Positions 4,420 to 58,953 of a stretch of DNA of 64,000 bases are shown here, piece after piece. Both the position numbers and the translations under genes were made by a program. Source of the DNA: Microgenomates group bacterium (lineage in GTDB: Bacteria > Patescibacteriota > Microgenomatia > UBA10105 > UBA927); the NCBI GenBank assembly GCA_049287205.1, contig JBAQFJ010000001.1, forward strand, positions 191,041 through 255,040, in the 5' to 3' direction. A model generated the notes under the pieces. It searched no databases, was not told where the DNA came from, and worked only from the letters and a program-made list of their open reading frames with translations. Each line of letters begins with the position of its first letter. The stretch's first letter is position 1.

Positions 4420-5418
4420 ATGATTAGACCATTAGCACGCTTTAGAAAATCTATCTTTATCGTGTTCGTGTTACTAGAAGTAATGTGTATTTTTTTTCTC
4501 GTTCGTTATATTATCATCAAACAAAAGGGACTATTTCAAATTCATCCGTTGGCGAGCTTTGCACCTACGTCAAAGAGTAGTACACCGTTACAATATTATT
4601 ATGAGTTGACTCCCAACACCCAAGCATACGACCACGCTTCATGGCTTACTCAGGATGTTGTATATCACTATAACGCTGATGGTCTTCATGAGCGATTTGA
4701 TTATCCGGTGCAGAAAGACGCCCACGTGTATCGCATCATTACATTGGGAGATTCATTTACTTTTGGTATGTGGGTGAATACAGAAGCGAATTTTTCTGAG
4801 CTACTGGAAGATGCATTGAATACTACAGCTTCTTGTCCAGGGATTGATAGGTTTGAAGTGATTAATCTTGGCGTTCCCGGATATGATTTGCATTATGCGT
4901 TCCAACGGTTTGAGGATAAGGGGAGTAAATATGCGCCTGATGCCGTTATTTGGTTTTTACGAGGGGAGAATTTTATTCTTCATACGGAACTATACCGTGA
5001 TTTAGAAGAAACGTATAAAAAAACTCTAAAAGAAAAAACTGTAGAAACCTCTGATCAATCAGATATGTATGCTGCTTCCACATTGGCGTATCAAGCATAC
5101 ATGGATGCATATGCTACCTATTCTGCTGAAAAACAGGAGCAGATTAAGCAAGAAGAATTAAAGAACATCACAGCGTTATCTAAACGGTATAGTATTCCAA
5201 TAGTGCTTGTAACGCTTGAAGAAGAGTCGGAAGAAAATAAAAAAAGTATGCAGCAACTAGCATTACGCGGAAAAAATATTTGGTATGATGCAGTTGTTGG
5301 AGCTGATACATTTCATCCAAACGATTACCATTTAAACGCCCCAGGACACACACGTATCGCGCAAACCGTTTTTACGTTTTTACTATCTCATTTTCTGCAA
5401 TCATGTCGAATGCAATAA
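4420..5418 (+). CDS. Membrane-anchored SGNH/GDSL hydrolase, paralog 1
   Basis: N-terminal TM helix; GDS block ITLGDSFTFG; C-terminal DxxH (NDYHLNAPGH). The internal ATG at 4420 is chosen over the 4306 start. Confidence 0.75.
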   Translation: MIRPLARFRKSIFIVFVLLEVMCIFFLVRYIIIKQKGLFQIHPLASFAPTSKSSTPLQYYYELTPNTQAYDHASWLTQDVVYHYNADGLHERFDYPVQKDAHVYRIITLGDSFTFGMWVNTEANFSELLEDALNTTASCPGIDRFEVINLGVPGYDLHYAFQRFEDKGSKYAPDAVIWFLRGENFILHTELYRDLEETYKKTLKEKTVETSDQSDMYAASTLAYQAYMDAYATYSAEKQEQIKQEELKNITALSKRYSIPIVLVTLEEESEENKKSMQQLALRGKNIWYDAVVGADTFHPNDYHLNAPGHTRIAQTVFTFLLSHFLQSCRMQ

Positions 5419-6420
5419 ATGGCACATATGCAAAAAGCTCGAGGAAAAATATTTATCGTATGCATTTTTGCAGAATGCCTCAGTATCGCCATACTTTGTG
5501 TCTATATTATTGCCTTACATAAAACGCAGGCGATGCGAGCATTCCATGTCCTTCCTTTGTCTCAGAATACTGTCCAGTTTCCGATAGATACGGCGCTTCG
5601 CTATTACTATGAATTAGCACCAAATACTACGAAAATAGATGATTTTGCTTACATGCGGCTGACCGGCAAAGCGGTTCATACTATTAACGCGGATGGATTA
5701 AACGAAAGAATGATGTATGCGCTATCAAAACCTATTACCACATATAGAATTGTGACAGTTGGCGACTCTTTCACTGAAGGCGCGTTTGTTGATACAAAAA
5801 ATAATTATTCGGAAGTTTTGGAGGATATGCTCAATAGTAGCGTACAGTGCCCTTCTTATCAGCATTTTGAAGTTATTAACTTGGGTGTTGCCGGATATGA
5901 TATGCAATATAATCTTGAACGATTTAAGCAAAAAGGACTGAAGTATGATCCAAATCTTGTTATTCTTTGGACAGACGAAAATGATTATGTTGCCAATAAC
6001 GAAAAATATTACGCCTTGGTTGATACGTGGGATCCAGTGAAAGAATCGCCTGAAATTATTGCTTTATATCAATCTCAAGGTGACTTTGCGCCAGAGTCAA
6101 ATGCTGTCTGGTATAAATTTAATTCGTTATATACAAGGACAACACTTGTTGCGGAAGAACTGACGTATCTTCGTAATTTTATGCAGTTTGTTCAGAGTCC
6201 ATTGATCATTTTTTCATTGAGCCGGACGCCGAAAGACATTCGGCAATCAATCCAAACGATGGCGTATCAACAACAGGGAGCATTCTATTTTCCTGAGATA
6301 CCAGATGTGTATGATAAATTTCCTGATGACCACCCCTCTGTTGTAGGACATACGCAGTTTGCGGAATTTTTATATAGAAAGCTTCAGTCTTCTGTTCTTA
6401 CCGATTGTGTTTTTCGGTGA
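5419..6420 (+). CDS. Membrane-anchored SGNH/GDSL hydrolase, paralog 2 (tandem duplicate)
   Basis: IVTVGDSFTEG and DDHPSVVGH are present. It shares the YYYEL(A/T)PNT...NADGL(H/N)ER region with paralog 1. Confidence 0.75.
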   Translation: MAHMQKARGKIFIVCIFAECLSIAILCVYIIALHKTQAMRAFHVLPLSQNTVQFPIDTALRYYYELAPNTTKIDDFAYMRLTGKAVHTINADGLNERMMYALSKPITTYRIVTVGDSFTEGAFVDTKNNYSEVLEDMLNSSVQCPSYQHFEVINLGVAGYDMQYNLERFKQKGLKYDPNLVILWTDENDYVANNEKYYALVDTWDPVKESPEIIALYQSQGDFAPESNAVWYKFNSLYTRTTLVAEELTYLRNFMQFVQSPLIIFSLSRTPKDIRQSIQTMAYQQQGAFYFPEIPDVYDKFPDDHPSVVGHTQFAEFLYRKLQSSVLTDCVFR

Positions 6421-13377: not shown

Positions 13378-13406
13378 TTGACGTGGGTCACGGCTTTCCG
13401 TATAAT
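13378..13406 (+). promoter_or_regulatory. Sigma70-type promoter, candidate rrn P1
   Basis: TTGACG, a 17-nt spacer, then TATAAT. Seen directly. Confidence 0.6.
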
Positions 13407-13458: not shown

Positions 13459-13483
13459 CCCCGCACAAGGCGGGGCTTTTTTT
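13459..13483 (+). promoter_or_regulatory. GC hairpin plus U7 in the rRNA leader. It is either a boxB-like element, a leader terminator/attenuator, or the terminator of a short sRNA.
   Basis: Stem ccccgc, loop acaag, stem gcgggg, then c and ttttttt. Seen directly. Confidence 0.5.
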
Positions 13484-13493
13484 CTCTCTTTTT

Positions 13494-13505
13494 TGCTCAT
13501 TAACA
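13494..13505 (+). promoter_or_regulatory. boxA-like antitermination element (TGCTCATTAACA)
   Basis: It matches the rrn boxA consensus TGCTCTTTAACAA at 11 of 12 positions. A possible P2 (TTGCAA, 18 nt, TAAATA) follows at 13509-13538. Confidence 0.55.
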
Positions 13506-13566: not shown

Positions 13567-15056
<1,490 letters not shown>

Positions 15057-19686: not shown

Positions 19687-19799
19687 AAAAAGTTTTGATT
19701 GTCGTTATCTTATATTATCGCATGGAAAGTATCCATAGTAAGATGGTACAATAGGGAGGCTTGTGGCGGCACGTCAAACGTGCCAGCCGCGTTTGACGC

Positions 19800-19871
19800 G
19801 GCGCGTTGGCGAAGAGGTAACGCGGGAGTCTGCAAAACTTCTATGCGCCGGTTCGATTCCGGCACGCGCCT
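19800..19871 (+). tRNA. tRNA-Cys (GCA)
   Basis: Hand-folded cloverleaf. Acceptor GGCGCGT pairs with ACGCGCC. The anticodon loop CTGCAAA gives anticodon GCA. T-arm is GCCGG, TTCGATT, CCGGC. The U73 discriminator is typical of tRNA-Cys. CCA is not encoded. Confidence 0.85.
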
Positions 19872-19875
19872 CAAA

Positions 19876-19905
19876 AAATACCCCGAAGTTCGGGGTATTT
19901 TTATA
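19876..19905 (+). terminator. Intrinsic terminator after tRNA-Cys
   Basis: Stem ataccccg, loop aagtt, stem cggggtat, then ttttat. Confidence 0.7.
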
Positions 19906-19912
19906 AAGGAAT

Positions 19913-21091
19913 ATGAAACAAAAAACAACCGTACGGAAAATTGCAATTATATCCGCGTTACATTACGCGTGGTTTTGGGTGCCGATTTGGGTACTTTTTT
20001 ATCGGCGGTTTACCGATTACTCGGGTGTTGCAATGCTCGAAGCATTGTCGATGGGAGCATTTTTAGCAATGATTGTTCCCGGTGGGTTATTGGCTGATTA
20101 TATCGGAAGAAAACGATTACTTATCCTTGCAAGCATAGTCAATGCAATCGGTGCCACCATTGTTGGTTTTGCTGGTTCATTTACAGCTGTTGCAATCGGT
20201 ATCGGTATAATGAGTTTGTCTGGTGGACTCTTTACTACGTCTGTGGAGGCGCTTCTGTATGATTTTCTGAAAACGGAAAAGAGAGAAGAACAATATAAAA
20301 AGATATGGGGAAAAATGACAACTGTACGGATGCTGACTTGTGCTGCTGCAAGTTTGGTCGGGGGGTATATTTATAGTATTGATGTTCGACTTCCGTGGTT
20401 TGGTGTTGCGGTAGCGTCCTTTGCCGCCTTTTTTGTTGCCATAACACTTAAGGAGCCACGTATTGAAACCCCGCATGATTCATTCCCGCAATTTTTACGA
20501 GAGGCGGGGAAGGGAGTAACAGAGTTGTTCAGAAAATATGTTTGGAAAATCAGTATCCCGCTTCTGTTTATTGGTATATTTTTTACGACGGACTCATCAG
20601 GGATTTGGGATATTCAGGCAGTTGAATTTGGATTTTCCAGTCAAACACTGGGTGTGTTACTTACCGTAACCTATCTTTGTTTGGCTGTTGTGTCTTGGTA
20701 TGCGGCAAAAATAACGGCGAAATTGTCTTCGTTTGGAGGGATTCTCTTATTTGCCATTATTTGGGCAGTATTGTGGTTTGTTTCAGGGGTAACCGGAGGT
20801 GTTATCGGTGCAACGCTTTTGATTCTTCGTTCTTCGTTTTCAGTTGTTGCGGATATCCAAAGTTCTGGTGTGTGGAATAGTATGATTCCATCGCGAGTTC
20901 GGGCTACGACACTCTCAACAATCACCATCATTCGAGGACTACCGTATATTCTGGTTGCTGCAAATATCGGGATGGTCATCGATTCTGTCGGCATTCAATG
21001 GCTGATTCGTGCGTTTGCGATCCTGATGTTTATGTTGCTTCTCCCCACATGTGTTTGGTGGATACAAAAGGGAAGAAAGAGCACAGTGTGA
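19913..21091 (+). CDS. MFS-family transporter
   Basis: About 12 TM segments. The loop GRKRLLILASI lies between TM2 and TM3, as is typical of MFS transporters. Confidence 0.8.
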   Translation: MKQKTTVRKIAIISALHYAWFWVPIWVLFYRRFTDYSGVAMLEALSMGAFLAMIVPGGLLADYIGRKRLLILASIVNAIGATIVGFAGSFTAVAIGIGIMSLSGGLFTTSVEALLYDFLKTEKREEQYKKIWGKMTTVRMLTCAAASLVGGYIYSIDVRLPWFGVAVASFAAFFVAITLKEPRIETPHDSFPQFLREAGKGVTELFRKYVWKISIPLLFIGIFFTTDSSGIWDIQAVEFGFSSQTLGVLLTVTYLCLAVVSWYAAKITAKLSSFGGILLFAIIWAVLWFVSGVTGGVIGATLLILRSSFSVVADIQSSGVWNSMIPSRVRATTLSTITIIRGLPYILVAANIGMVIDSVGIQWLIRAFAILMFMLLLPTCVWWIQKGRKSTV

Positions 21092-21858
21092 CGTGCGGTT
21101 TATCGTATCCTTTTTTGTTAAAGAATAGGATGAAACGCACGAGGAACAAAACACAATAACAAATTACCCAACAAAGGGAGGAGAAGAAAAAGCCCTAAAA
21201 TTGGAGAATCATTATCGTGAATAGTCTATTCCTCGCCCCCAGTTGCGTTCATTCGCCGTTATGAATATGGATGAGTTGCCAGATAGCGCAGGAGTTGCTG
21301 CGTTTTAAACAGATACATATTTTAGTAAACCCGCGTGCTAATTTTTTGTTGGAGGATGAATTAGCTCTGTGCGGAAATGCTCCGGGCAATGGTGGAGTTG
21401 TTGTTTACTACAGCGATATTCTGTGAGAAGAAATTATTTACTCGCATTTTGGTTTTCTCCTGTTAGTGAACCGGTACGCCATAAGCGTCGTTCCGACAAA
21501 AATCCTGTTCTCTCTTTTGTGTTTACTCCGTGCGCCTCCTTTCCCTGCGTGTTTTTTGAAAAAACTACCGATAATATCTGGGTGCTCCCTTAGTACTAAT
21601 TTTATTCACCCAAAGAAGTTAGTAAGCTGCTAAACATACGCGTGTGTTATGTTCACCACCTTACTAACTTCCGATGTGAGAAATAGAAACATTTTGTTCC
21701 TCGTTTTTAAAGAGCTTGTATTGATCGCATCAAATATCGCAAAAGATAGTTGTGCAATATATAACTCCTCTCGTAATACATCTTTGTTTGTTTTCTTGTC
21801 AAGAGAGAAAGGGGTAGTAGTGAGGCAAAATCTTGTGGTACAATACGTCAGTGTTGAA

Positions 21859-21930
21859 GGGTGACTAGTTCATCGGTAGAACGCTTTCCTGATAAGAAAG
21901 AGGCGGATGGTCCGACTCCATCGTCACCCA
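21859..21930 (+). tRNA. tRNA-Ile (GAT), candidate
   Basis: Hand-folded. Acceptor GGGTGAC pairs with GTCACCC. The D-arm is canonical (A14, G18, G19). The anticodon loop CTGATAA gives anticodon GAT. T-stem GATGG pairs with CCATC. The T-loop TCCGACT has C at position 55 instead of U. Confidence 0.65.
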
Positions 21931-21982
21931 CACTTCGTTCGCCCGTTGGCGAACTACGCGTGGCAAGCCACATTGTATACCT

Positions 21983-22555
21983 ATGATTTTATCTGACGGT
22001 GATATCAGAAAAGCGTTGGTTGAAAAACGGATTGTTATTGATCCGTCCCCGAATTTTGAAACACAACTCGGTTCCTGTTCCATTGATTTTCGGCTTGGAA
22101 CAAAATTTCGTGTATTCAATCACAGCAAAGTTGCGCTCATTGACACCAATAACCCGAATGTTACGAGTGATCTGATGACGGAAGTGGAAGTTAAAGACGG
22201 GGAGCCGTTTATTTTACAGCCGGGTGATTTTGTTCTCGCAACAACCATGGAAACATTAACGATGCCAAACAATTTACTTGCACGGCTTGAGGGTCGTTCG
22301 AGTTTGGGAAGACTTGGTCTTGTGGTTCATTCCACCGCCTCTGTATTTGATCCGGGGTGGCATGGGGTAGCGGTTTTGGAACTTGGAAACCTTGGAAGAA
22401 TGCCGATTGCACTTTACAGCGGTATGCGTATCTGTTCATTTACGTTTGAGGAACTCACTTCGGATTCAGAACACCCGTATCTTACACGAAAATCTGCAAA
22501 ATATAAAAATCAGAATGCGCCAGTAGTCTCTCAGATCGCACGAGACCTCGAATAA
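21983..22555 (+). CDS. dcd: dCTP deaminase
   Basis: MILSDGDIRKAL...PGWHG...is typical of Dcd. Length is 190 aa. Confidence 0.9.
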   Translation: MILSDGDIRKALVEKRIVIDPSPNFETQLGSCSIDFRLGTKFRVFNHSKVALIDTNNPNVTSDLMTEVEVKDGEPFILQPGDFVLATTMETLTMPNNLLARLEGRSSLGRLGLVVHSTASVFDPGWHGVAVLELGNLGRMPIALYSGMRICSFTFEELTSDSEHPYLTRKSAKYKNQNAPVVSQIARDLE

Positions 22556-22564
22556 TCAGTCTTC

Positions 22565-24328
22565 TTATTTTACTGTCACACTTTTTGCCAAGTTCCTTGG
22601 TTTATCTGGATCTAAATGTTTGGAAAGTGTCAGATAGTAGGCAAGCAACTGTCCTGCGATAATGTTTGGGATGATGGTCGCCGTGCCCGCATCTGCTACT
22701 TCAATGTACGCATCAAATATTGTATTTGGTTTGTACGAAATACCGATGATGAATCCTCCGCGTGCTTTCATTTCCATTGCCGCTGCGAGGTTTGCTCCAT
22801 ATGTTTCATCGTTTGGTAAAAAGACGATGCATGGTGTGTTTTTTTCAATTAAGGCGATAGGTCCGTGTTTTAGCTCACCTGCTGCAAGACCCTCCGCATG
22901 AATATAGCTTATTTCTTTTATTTTCATTGCAGTTTCGAGTGCCGCAGGATATGAGGTACCGCGACCGACGACAAATAATTGCTTGTTTTCCTTAAGTTTT
23001 TCTGCAAGTGTTTTTATTGCGGCAAGTGATGTTGGTTCAAGTAATTTTTTGATTCCGCATGTTGCAGCAGTTAACACTTTTTTCCCTTCATCTAAATTCC
23101 CTGCGAGATCATATGCAGTCAAGAGAAGGATGCCAAGTTTTGTTGTCATGTCTTTTGTTGAGGCAACAGATATCTCAGGTCCTGCACCACATTGCACCTT
23201 GATATCGGATAATCGCCACAATGTTGATCCGTAGACATTGACGATGCTCGCAACTACCGCCTTGTGCGTTGCACCGCGTTTGACCGCATCGATGATATCC
23301 ATGGTTTCACCTGACTGCGAGAGCCCGATGAGAAGCGACTTATCATTTAGAAATTCTTCCTGATACGTAAATTCACTGGCAACACAGGCGTTGATATGTC
23401 GTTTGGCAATGCTAGAGAATAGGTAGGTACCAGCAAGACATGCGTAGTACGCACTTCCACAGCCGATAAGATACGTTCCGCGTGCGCTAGTTATTGCAGT
23501 TGCCAGTGTGTGTATATCATCACGGGTGAGCAATTCCTCCAGTATTGTCGGCTGCTCATGGATTTCTTTTTCCATGAACGTTGCATAGCCGTTTTTTTCC
23601 GCTGCGGTTACATTCCACGTTAATAGCGTTGGTTGTATGTCTTTTTTTTTGCCAGTGATTGCGTCAAATATTGTAATTGACTCGTCCGTTAACACTGCCA
23701 TTTCATTATCCTCCAAGAAATGCACTTTTTTGGTGTAGGGCAAAAGTCCTGCTGCATCGCTTGCGACGAATTGTTCGTTGTCTCCGTAGCCAACAACGAG
23801 TGGAGAACCGTTTCTAATTGCGACAATCTGCCGCTCTCCATTTTTGATTGCGATGATGGCATTGGAGCCGGTAAATTGTAAAAATGTTGTTCTGACACTT
23901 TCTACAAACGGCATGGTTTTGACTGCATCTTCAATCATGTGCGACGCAACCTCACTGTCTGTCTCCGACACAAATGTATGTTTGGTACGGAGTGCAGTTT
24001 TGAATGGTTCATAATTCTCAATGATTCCGTTGTGAATCACGGCAATGTTTTTTGTGCAATCTGCGTGCGGATGCGCATTTTCTTTCGTGACGCCTCCATG
24101 TGTTGCCCAGCGGGTATGCCCAAATGCAAGGGAGCTGTCTGGCATGCTATCAACCGTGGCATTGCCGATTTTTCCGATCTGTTTTTCGATCACTATTCCT
24201 TTGGCACCATCTGGTATTGCAGCAACGCCCCAACTGTCATATCCTCGGTATTCAAGGGTTTTGAGACCGGTTAATACGAGTTTTTGTGCATCAGTTCGTT
24301 TTCCAATGTATCCAAAAATTCCACACAT
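22565..24328 (-). CDS. glmS: Glutamine--fructose-6-phosphate aminotransferase
   Basis: The N-terminus MCGIFGYIG (Cys2 nucleophile), two SIS domains and a C-terminal ...KSVTVK are present. The start is set at the MCGIF methionine. Confidence 0.95.
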   Translation of the reverse strand: MCGIFGYIGKRTDAQKLVLTGLKTLEYRGYDSWGVAAIPDGAKGIVIEKQIGKIGNATVDSMPDSSLAFGHTRWATHGGVTKENAHPHADCTKNIAVIHNGIIENYEPFKTALRTKHTFVSETDSEVASHMIEDAVKTMPFVESVRTTFLQFTGSNAIIAIKNGERQIVAIRNGSPLVVGYGDNEQFVASDAAGLLPYTKKVHFLEDNEMAVLTDESITIFDAITGKKKDIQPTLLTWNVTAAEKNGYATFMEKEIHEQPTILEELLTRDDIHTLATAITSARGTYLIGCGSAYYACLAGTYLFSSIAKRHINACVASEFTYQEEFLNDKSLLIGLSQSGETMDIIDAVKRGATHKAVVASIVNVYGSTLWRLSDIKVQCGAGPEISVASTKDMTTKLGILLLTAYDLAGNLDEGKKVLTAATCGIKKLLEPTSLAAIKTLAEKLKENKQLFVVGRGTSYPAALETAMKIKEISYIHAEGLAAGELKHGPIALIEKNTPCIVFLPNDETYGANLAAAMEMKARGGFIIGISYKPNTIFDAYIEVADAGTATIIPNIIAGQLLAYYLTLSKHLDPDKPRNLAKSVTVK

Positions 24329-24679
24329 ATACGTATCTCCTTTTAAAAAATGAAGTGCTTGTTTTGTACTATTTGTGAAGCAACTCTCATGGATTGCTCT
24401 TTGTGCTTTTGTTGCCAAAAGATTTAAAACAATCGTTTTGGAAGAGAGTATTCCAAAGGGTTTCCGCTGATACTCTATAGAAGTATTCTATAGGTCCGAA
24501 TTTCGGCTATGCCGAACCCTTTTCCTCGTTATCCCACATAGTGGGACCATGCGCTCTTTTGTTTTTTTTGCTTCTCTTTGCTCCTTTCTTTGTCTATCAT
24601 ATGGTGTCTGTCTTGGACTGTCAAACTATTTGACAAATTGTAAAAAACAAGGAATAGTAGATAGTAAGGAGAAATTATT

Positions 24680-57974: not shown

Positions 57975-58033
57975 TGTTTGTAGTATACTCGCTATGGTGT
58001 GTTAAAGATACAATTAGTACAAATATATGTAAT

Positions 58034-58072
58034 TTGACAATTAGTTGTAATGTCTATACTATGACGATAGAC
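58034..58072 (+). promoter_or_regulatory. Promoter (TTGACA, 17 nt, TACTAT) with an overlapping inverted repeat GTCTAT-N9-ATAGAC
   Basis: Seen directly. This is the classic arrangement for an autoregulated RHH protein. Confidence 0.5.
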
Positions 58073-58083
58073 AAAAAACATAT

Positions 58084-58314
58084 ATGAAAACTGATTCGAA
58101 GCAACGTCTTACAGCATTTATTGATCCCATTTTAGTGAAACGGGCGAAAGTTCGTGGAGCGCTTGAAGGATTAACAATATCAGAAGTTGTTGAGCGTGCG
58201 CTTGATGCATATGCGCCGTATATCAAAAAGGCGAGTGATAAGGATATCCATGTGAGTTTCATTAATTATCCGACTGTTGATATATCGGTTTCCAAAAAAA
58301 CGTTAAAATTATAA
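58084..58314 (+). CDS. Ribbon-helix-helix (CopG/antitoxin-like) DNA-binding protein
   Basis: RLTAFIDPILVKRAKVRGALEGLTISEVVERALDAY has the RHH beta-alpha-alpha pattern. Confidence 0.65.
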   Translation: MKTDSKQRLTAFIDPILVKRAKVRGALEGLTISEVVERALDAYAPYIKKASDKDIHVSFINYPTVDISVSKKTLKL

Positions 58315-58371
58315 AATACTTGGGTTTGTAGACGTACATCTGTGTAAATAAAAGTATATTTATCCAGTTGT

Positions 58372-58953
58372 ATGGATATAAACAAACTTGGTAAAATTCC
58401 GCAATCAATCTACGCGCGTATCGCTTCCTTGGGAAAGATAGAACACGTTCCACTTGTTATTTCCCCTCAAGTAACAGATCAAGCGTTAAAAGAAGAAGGA
58501 AAAAATGAGCAGAAGATAAATATAGCGACCAAAAAAGAAGAGGATAAACAATTAGTGAATGATCTTATAAAAAAATCGAACAGATGTATTATCAGTATTT
58601 CTACTCACTTCCCGTGGACATTGCTTCCTAACACAATTCAGGTTGAGGAAAGTCGTGTTACATTTATTTTTCGTCAACTATTAGGATCGCAGTCGCACAG
58701 TGTTGATATAAAAGATATATCGAATGTATTTATCGAATCTTCCCCATTTTTTGCAACCTTGCAGATCGTTTCTCGGACATATATACAAAACGATATTATG
58801 ATCGGACATCTGAATGTGAAGAGAGCACATCATGTCCAAGCGGTGATTGAAGGATTGCGGACATTTGCTGAGCATAACATAGATACCTCTAACTACGAAG
58901 TGAAAGAACTTATAGCAAAAATTGAAGAGTTTCAAAAAAATAAAAAAATCTAA
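58372..58953 (+). CDS. Hypothetical protein (193 aa)
   Basis: AT-rich ORF with plausible codon usage. No family was recognised. Confidence 0.5.
   Translation: MDINKLGKIPQSIYARIASLGKIEHVPLVISPQVTDQALKEEGKNEQKINIATKKEEDKQLVNDLIKKSNRCIISISTHFPWTLLPNTIQVEESRVTFIFRQLLGSQSHSVDIKDISNVFIESSPFFATLQIVSRTYIQNDIMIGHLNVKRAHHVQAVIEGLRTFAEHNIDTSNYEVKELIAKIEEFQKNKKI

Follow-up and report, generated by a model that had tools for sequence, protein, structure and literature searches.

Genomes of the Candidate Phyla Radiation (CPR) are tiny and hold little non-coding DNA, and almost nothing is known of their regulatory RNAs. What is kept, in one such genome, in a spacer of 767 nt (21092-21858 of the 64-kb stretch analysed here, hereafter the window) that separates a major facilitator superfamily (MFS) transporter gene from the gene for tRNA-Ile(GAT)? 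The organism, judged by the relatives of its dcd protein, is a Candidatus Gottesmanbacteria-like CPR bacterium. A preliminary description had called the segment gene-free, and indeed no open reading frame (ORF) of more than 74 aa lies between the MFS stop codon (21091) and the start of the tRNA gene (21859). Counting only ORFs of at least 90 aa, no other gap in the window is as large, rRNA genes aside. Its claim of a raised GC content did not hold (0.398 in the spacer against 0.405 in the window, and 0.418 only when the tRNA gene is added), and its range of 0-250 bp for all other intergenic distances was loose, with gaps of 331, 316 and 706 nt elsewhere. We propose that the spacer is a self-contained accessory module, whose core is an RNA gene on the minus strand that carries an rRNA-style BoxA leader and diverges from the tRNA-Ile promoter; we give this reading an even chance. 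Much more secure is that a selected, structured RNA module is present, on whichever strand it is read.

Relatives of the locus were gathered from a genome-collection scan with dcd, a metagenome scan with the MFS protein, and look-ups of MFS and dcd homologues. Seven loci, the window included, are of a long type in which the MFS gene is followed by a spacer of 0.65-0.9 kb; the other six are L092+L096 (two contigs of one sample, overlapping by 30 nt and joined as one ortholog), L089, L090, L083, L091, and L093. The MFS proteins at these seven loci are 60-88% identical, and the same order of blocks recurs in all seven orthologous spacers. The preliminary description had offered an unannotated structured RNA as one of three options, beside a decayed gene and a regulatory region, and missed that the best-conserved signals (promoter, BoxA, long-range helix, and a short ORF) belong to the minus strand. 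The signals of the leader, and the two strands of the long-range helix, are the following:

21802-21797 (-35, TTGACA) and 21778-21773 (-10, TATTAC), minus strand: putative sigma-70-type promoter.
21722-21762, minus strand: leader hairpin in the position of a boxB, in which AUAUAUUGCA pairs with UGCGAUAU, one of two UGCGAU(AU) repeats.
21715-21704, minus strand: BoxA-like element GCTCTTTAAAAA, about 57 nt past the -10 and after the hairpin.
21692-21704, minus strand: M3, the leader strand of the long-range helix, reading ACGAGGAACAAAA directly after BoxA.
21139-21151, minus strand: M1, the trailer strand of the same helix, reading UUUUGUUCCUCGU and abutting hairpin A (see below).

Both promoter hexamers are invariant in all seven orthologs, while the 16-18 nt that separate them vary in sequence, which is the pattern expected of a -35 and a -10. 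The U.G pair of the leader hairpin can form on the minus strand only, being a C.A mismatch on the plus strand. The BoxA consensus, GYTCTTTAANA (PMC5725501), is matched perfectly in the window, L089, and L090 (GCTCTTTAAAA) and with one mismatch in each of the remaining four, and the element stands in the same place, 56-79 nt after the -10, in seven of seven. A likeness to this arrangement is found in the same genome at the 16S rRNA gene (rrs), whose leader has a promoter of the same type (TTGACG-N17-TATAAT, 13378-13406). That leader continues with a G+C-rich hairpin and T-run (13459-13486) and then a BoxA-like TGCTCATTAACA (13494-13505), about 63 nt before the 16S start at 13568; since this element lies between promoter and hairpin on one side and the 16S 5' end on the other, it is probably the genome's rRNA-leader BoxA. 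The spacer BoxA of L093, TTGCTCATTAACA, is identical to it over 13 nt (window 13493-13505). The 16S leader can also pair with the 16S trailer (duplex of -25.8 kcal/mol), and the 16S gene appears to be unlinked, as no 23S gene occurs in the window. A likeness of CTATTCCTCG to the 16S trailer of a further relative, L098, was set aside as compatible with chance.

Directly after BoxA comes ACGAGGAACA(AAA), whose perfect complement UGUUCCUCGU lies about 550 nt downstream; in the window, M1 and M3 form a perfect 13-nt inverted repeat, for which 0.08 matches are expected. The 10-nt core of M1 is invariant in all seven orthologs, the two strands are complementary over 10-13 nt in every one of them, and the inverted pair is confined to loci with the long spacer. 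When the whole unit is folded on the minus strand, beginning at its predicted start, the M3:M1 helix is part of the minimum free energy structure, with pairing probabilities of 0.61-0.94, in five of the seven; on the plus strand its probability is 0-0.43 in the six full-length orthologs folded.

That these blocks are under selection follows from a comparison with the adjoining gene. The 4-fold degenerate sites of MFS are close to saturation (identity of the window to its near relatives 0.47-0.54, to L091 0.40, to L093 0.32), and the leader blocks next to tRNA-Ile, at 78-88% identity to the near relatives, 61% to L091 and 51% to L093, stand well above them and are conserved beyond the neutral level. 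The interior of the spacer aligns poorly between relatives. Two hairpins show compensatory changes:

21092-21141, plus strand: hairpin A, at the far end of the module, beginning one base past the MFS stop, with outer stem CGTGCG/CGCACG.
21615-21671: hairpin G, with 24-nt arms that are 88% complementary and pairing that continues inside the loop.

Hairpin G is the perfect 12-bp stem of the preliminary description, which is real and had been placed one base too far to the right. Across six orthologs its 17 pairs are 91.9% paired and 14 of them have changed on both sides, the stem in L093 being of wholly different sequence; hairpin A, across all seven, has 19 pairs, of which 94.7% are paired and six have changed on both sides. 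None of 500 shuffles matches either hairpin in percent paired, in double-change cells or in covariation score; the number of pairs changed on both sides is reached by none of 500 for G and by one of 500 for A. For both hairpins the pairing collapses when the partners are slid by 1-3 columns. The six full-length long spacers moreover fold better than their dinucleotide shuffles on both strands (z from -1.7 to -6.6), more strongly on the minus strand in four of the six, which is a weak lean only; counts of G.U versus A.C in hairpin G show no clear preference for a strand. A terminator scan finds no intrinsic terminator at hairpins A or G, and in the window neither is followed by a U-run on either strand; that this genome does have terminators of canonical form is seen after tRNA-Cys (19877-19902). 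The option of a structured RNA is thus supported by compensatory change, by folding and by a conservation that far exceeds the neutral level.

No described family corresponds to the module, which combines elements of known kinds (promoter, BoxA, leader-trailer helix) in an unfamiliar way. Rfam 15 returns only the tRNA in this region of the window, both at the gathering threshold and when E values of up to 10 are admitted; on five orthologous loci it returns only tRNAs, 16S, glmS and a chance microRNA hit on hairpin G. Neither a second copy of the spacer in the 64-kb window (self-BLAST) nor a further copy of the module among about 100 loci was found, and no links to phage or viral contigs came to light. 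A T-box was considered for L092, which has GGGTGGTGG, and discarded, as the motif has no Rfam match and is not conserved.

Four relatives (L002, L082, L084, L095) are of a short type, in which the tRNA-Ile promoter follows almost directly after MFS; their deletions run from the MFS stop to about 21812, taking out exactly the minus-strand unit, its promoter and hairpin A included, and sparing the promoter of the tRNA. In a neighbour-joining tree of the MFS proteins the long-type L093 and L091 are basal, the short-type L082 is sister to the long-type L092 (bootstrap 89%), and the short-type L084 and L095 form a clade of their own (92%). By this topology the ancestor of the MFS-bearing clade already had the module, which has since been lost at least twice; by this account it is conserved but dispensable in close relatives. 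In three more distant Gottesmanbacteria (L003, L004, L005) there is neither MFS nor spacer, and tRNA-Cys, the gene upstream of MFS in the window, is separated from tRNA-Ile by 46-75 nt. L098, which likewise has neither MFS nor module, carries at about 395-440, between the tRNA-Cys terminator and the tRNA-Ile promoter, a stretch CGTGCGGTTATTAATCGAT...ATCGAGGAG that resembles the 5' arm of hairpin A together with the CGAGGA motif; this may be what is left of the module, or what the module arose from.

On the proposed reading, the sigma-70-type promoter (TTGACA, 18 nt, TATTAC) would start transcription near 21766. The nascent leader would fold its hairpin and then expose BoxA, which, by analogy with rRNA operons, would recruit NusB/NusE, so that RNA polymerase could transcribe about 650 nt, most of them untranslated, and escape termination by Rho. 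The 10-13 nt after BoxA (ACGAGGAACA) would pair with UGUUCCUCGU near the 3' end, closing one large domain in the manner of the leader and trailer of a pre-rRNA; this domain would hold hairpin G, a Shine-Dalgarno (SD)-like GAAAGGAGG that is not followed by a start codon, and a short, fast-evolving ORF with an SD of its own. The unit would end at hairpin A, facing the convergent MFS gene, in which case this hairpin would serve two convergent units as an end structure in both directions. The firing of the promoter, the binding of Nus factors to BoxA, the formation of the long-range helix and a role for the RNA are what we infer from these patterns; our guess is that the unit acts through its RNA, in regulation or on the ribosome, and not through a protein product. 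A bolder version, which we regard as tentative and probably too strong, sees here a new class of bacterial RNA gene, a mini rRNA operon whose strong promoter and BoxA leader would drive the Nus-dependent synthesis of a structured RNA of 0.65-0.9 kb; in these genome-reduced bacteria the RNA may be cut by RNase III at the helix and could dock on, or titrate, the 30S subunit through the conserved GAAAGGAGG, a perfect complement of the 16S 3' tail.

Two further elements stand in the MFS-proximal part of the spacer:

21225-21235: M2, a third copy of the motif of M1 and M3 (TCTATTCCTCG) in a conserved alignment block, an alternative partner of M1 on the plus strand, where their pairing is predicted at a probability of about 1 in L089 and L090.
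21285-21304, plus strand: hairpin C1 (AGCGCAGG...CTGCGTT, then TTTTAAA), terminator-like on this strand, with inner pairs that covary (G-C/U-A, C-G/A-U).

Several observations weigh against a minus-strand RNA gene. The sequences are only seven, all from one narrow clade, and the strand and the ends of the unit are deduced from them. The -10 has a C at position -7, and a scan with the promoter consensus did not report the promoter. Perfect matches to the BoxA consensus number one in 64 kb against about 0.5 expected by our own estimate, and those with at most one mismatch four against 1.75 in the window; at a frequency this near to chance, the weight of BoxA rests on its position and conservation. 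The arms of the long-range helix are invariant, so that covariation lends their pairing no support, and minus-strand folding does not predict the helix in L083 or L093. On the minus strand no U-tract terminator is seen. The plus strand, for its part, has signals of its own: hairpin A begins one base past the MFS stop and has invariant U.G pairs that can form only on this strand, and hairpin C1 has a G.U pair on this strand in four of four sequences, followed by UUUU. Finally, a conserved open frame in the interior could mean a peptide product.

The plus-strand signals would fit a long structured 3' untranslated region (UTR) of the MFS mRNA, whose hairpins would protect or terminate the transcript and which may read through into tRNA-Ile. 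U-rich sequence does follow hairpin G on the plus strand in L090 and L091. Transcription into MFS is in any case unusual: a canonical terminator (ATACCCCGAAGTTCGGGGTAT followed by TTTTT, 19877-19902) directly follows tRNA-Cys, and the 10 nt between it and the MFS start codon are too few for a promoter, so that the gene would rely on read-through. A 3' UTR leaves unexplained that the most conserved blocks are a promoter, a hairpin and a BoxA on the opposite strand, that the long-range helix is only weakly predicted on the plus strand, and that the four short-type relatives have the MFS gene while lacking the entire segment, hairpin A with it. We therefore consider this explanation unlikely, and note that the plus-strand signals of hairpins A and C1 may serve the convergent MFS transcript alongside a minus-strand RNA gene.

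A second alternative, which we judge just as unlikely, is a minus-strand gene (21447-21361) whose functional product is a small protein of 28-40 aa, with the remainder of the segment as its long regulatory 5' and 3' UTRs. It concerns the interior of the module, of which the elements are:

21323-21410: central domain, in which TAGTAAAC (21323-21330) is complementary to GTTTACTA (21403-21410), from sequence and alignment.
21337-21365: hairpin C3, GCTAATT...AATTAGC, enclosed by the arms of the central domain.
21447-21361, minus strand: candidate short ORF of 28 codons (MRVNNFFSQNIAVVNNNSTIARSISAQS), with an SD, AGGAG, at 21461-21457.
21530-21543, minus strand: block F, reading GAAAGGAGGCGCAC, the perfect complement of the 16S 3' tail CCUCCUUUC.

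The short ORF is the caveat to the preliminary statement that no convincing ORF occurs here, for its SD and AUG are aligned in the window, L092+L096, L089, L090, and L083. Its frame, and no other, runs without a stop through the five orthologous ORFs tested (a chance of 0.07-0.18 for each sequence), and L092+L096, once joined, has it open too; lengths differ by multiples of three throughout, and the stop codon persists, either as TAA or as TAG. The differences, however, are spread over the codon positions as 170/163/153 and most codon changes alter the amino acid, so that no selection at the level of amino acids is apparent; between the window and L089 some homologous bases are even read in different frames. 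In L093 the ORF is weak and in L091 doubtful, with peptides that are unrelated or unclear. The peptides are of polar composition, with much Ser, Asn, and Ala, lack a hydrophobic stretch and match nothing in Pfam or NCBIfam. The blocks that would be its UTRs are far better conserved than the ORF itself. The ORF may thus be translated, the sequence of the peptide not being what selection preserves.

The arms of the central domain are invariant and hence offer no test of covariation. Block F, kept in the window, L092+L096, L089, L090, and L083, complements the 16S 3' tail at 15044-15055 and is followed by a start codon in none of the orthologs; its interpretation as a 3' fragment of tRNA-Cys, a remnant of an attachment (att) site, was dropped, since the similarity is weak and L091 and L093 lack it. 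Just ahead of the short ORF's SD, L089 (about 5560-5620), L090 (about 5750-5810), and L083 (about 2470-2530) have on the minus strand a pseudoknot-like element, GGGG...GUCGCG...CCCC...GCGAC with an inserted hairpin, to which Rfam has no match; the window and L092+L096 have different sequence at this site. In the tRNA-proximal part no frame is open across the orthologs. Two further ORFs were rejected: one of 16 codons in the leader (MHNYLLRYL...) is frameshifted in L083 and truncated in L096, and one of 71 aa from the Logan assembly (21649-21864) runs into the tRNA and is interrupted in the orthologs.

A third possibility is a regulatory region acting at the level of DNA on the promoter of tRNA-Ile and dcd, with repeated protein-binding sites upstream of it. 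That promoter and the genes around the spacer are:

19800-19872, plus strand: tRNA-Cys, upstream of MFS.
19913-21091, plus strand: MFS transporter gene, its stop at 21091.
21836-21844, plus strand: extended -10 of the tRNA-Ile promoter (TGGTACAAT), back to back with the minus-strand promoter.
21859-21931, plus strand: tRNA-Ile(GAT), called by ARAGORN and found at full length by Infernal (59.2 bits), with T-loop TCCGACT (C55).
21983-22555, plus strand: dcd, downstream of tRNA-Ile.

Blocks H-J are indeed conserved in sequence and show no covariation, and CGAGGAA occurs three times and TTGCGAT twice, as direct repeats 12 nt apart, as binding sites might. Two covarying hairpins are nevertheless not needed for sites of this kind, 700 nt would be long for one in a compact genome, and the same tRNA promoter serves relatives that have lost the remaining spacer; its nonamer also recurs upstream of tRNA-Cys, at 19744. 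We hold a DNA-level region to be improbable.

Still more improbable is the remnant of a non-autonomous mobile element similar to a miniature inverted-repeat transposable element (MITE), of which M1 and M3 (21139-21151 and 21692-21704) would be the 13-bp terminal inverted repeats. Beyond the perfection of this repeat, the presence and absence of the segment among close relatives would fit such an element, as would the setting. The inserts upstream of dcd (downstream of tRNA-Ile where this tRNA was mapped) differ between relatives (L099 146-409, L100 62-325, L003 1277-2182, L086 5859-7049), and the inserted genes are one for an 87-aa GIY-YIG protein and ORFs of 301 and 396 aa; the locus is an insertion hot spot. 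Repeats with tRNA fragments are found here as well: between the tRNA-Ile promoter and the tRNA, L002 (5732-5889), L084 (about 5237-5359), and L096 (531-619) have one or two tandem units of 79-89 nt, each starting with a copy of the first 12 nt of the tRNA (GGGTGACTAGTT) and continuing with two 6-bp hairpins that covary between the loci (TCCACC/GGTGGA, TCTGGC/GCCAGA, TCGGCC/GGCCGA). This unit, of which the window has no copy, has the appearance of a small RNA element whose insertion duplicated its target. The spacer itself behaves otherwise: it has no second copy in the window or the roughly 100 loci and no phage or viral match, no relative has an empty site bounded by the repeats (the deletions take the flanks too), and its content is colinear, vertically inherited and carried by the basal lineages.

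Least credible of all is a decayed protein gene or neutral filler, which the absence of a long ORF and the poor alignment of the interior might suggest, since six-frame translations of the spacer have no match in Pfam, blastx of the spacers against all ORFs of 80-95 loci and the window yields only spacer-to-spacer matches on both strands, no relative has an intact protein gene at this position, and the blocks lie well above 4-fold sites and the hairpins carry compensatory changes.

Of the segment's neighbours, tRNA-Ile deserves separate mention. It was correctly described as a well-folded gene with C at position 55: it has a canonical cloverleaf with anticodon GAT but not the canonical U54-U55-C56 of the T-loop (21912-21918). 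The C is no defect of a single gene but a clade-wide, stable trait of several tRNAs, seen in L003, L004, L088, L089, L091, L093, and others: the T-loop of tRNA-Ile(GAT) reads TCCGAYT in all close Gottesmanbacteria-like relatives except L086 (TTCGATT), and that of tRNA-Cys reads TCCGATT in L003, L088, and L093, whereas all tRNAs in the non-CPR loci have TTCGA. Position 55 can thus switch between U and C in this clade. According to PMC7912444, U55 is a conserved base, and among tRNA modifications its conversion to pseudouridine is the most universally conserved; the trait bears on how strict the requirement for U55, and for pseudouridine 55, is. The 16S gene of L091 and of L093 has its end some 250 nt upstream of tRNA-Cys; tRNA-Ile is therefore the former 16S-23S spacer tRNA of a broken rRNA operon.

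Elsewhere in the window, a second long stretch free of ORFs of at least 90 aa (57975-58680, 706 nt, GC 0.343) has no match in Rfam at the gathering threshold. A glmS ribozyme (24381-24566, minus strand, 55.2 bits) lies upstream of a glmS-like gene (22565-24418, minus strand) and recurs in L089, L090, L083, and L091; it is a known element, here in CPR genomes.

If the proposed reading is true, the module is one of few candidate large non-coding RNAs in CPR bacteria, conserved yet dispensable, and a case in which Nus/BoxA antitermination is employed outside rRNA. Should the unit prove to be untranscribed, the segment would still be neither a pseudogene nor a known RNA.

Among known systems, the mRNAs of hok-type type I toxins share the fold-back pairing between 5' and 3' ends. 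Like them, the module has a short ORF inside a compact RNA whose 5' region would pair with the 3' end, and it occupies a dispensable locus; it differs in its polar peptides, which lack a hydrophobic helix, in that no antisense RNA was identified, and in its BoxA, which is not a feature of hok. GOLLD and ROOL, both in Rfam, are large orphan structured RNAs that often adjoin tRNA genes. The module resembles them in its length of several hundred nt, its many helices, its tRNA neighbour and its patchy presence, and is set apart by the lack of any Rfam match even at E up to 10, by the absence of a phage context and by its CPR host. BoxA elements outside rRNA include those upstream of CRISPR arrays. 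As in such cases, the BoxA of the module would stand near the 5' end of a long, mostly untranslated transcript and would guard it against Rho, though neither CRISPR repeats nor genes for Nus factors are found here. The 5' UTR of suhB and other candidate targets are further examples, the suhB BoxA lying within about 50 nt of the start codon and repressing the gene (PMC5725501); in the module the distance from BoxA to the short ORF is about 270 nt. The closest likeness is to the leader of an rRNA operon. The enclosed RNA, of about 540 nt, is different, having no match to rRNA or Rfam, as are the helix, which is only 10-13 bp long, and the distribution of the unit, which is dispensable and belongs to one small clade. 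Shared is the order of a putative promoter, which is of the rrs type, a hairpin, a BoxA that fits the published consensus and resembles the genome's own 16S leader element, and a strand that would pair with its complement beyond the body of the RNA; whereas an rRNA leader binds Nus factors and is processed, the module RNA may do so.

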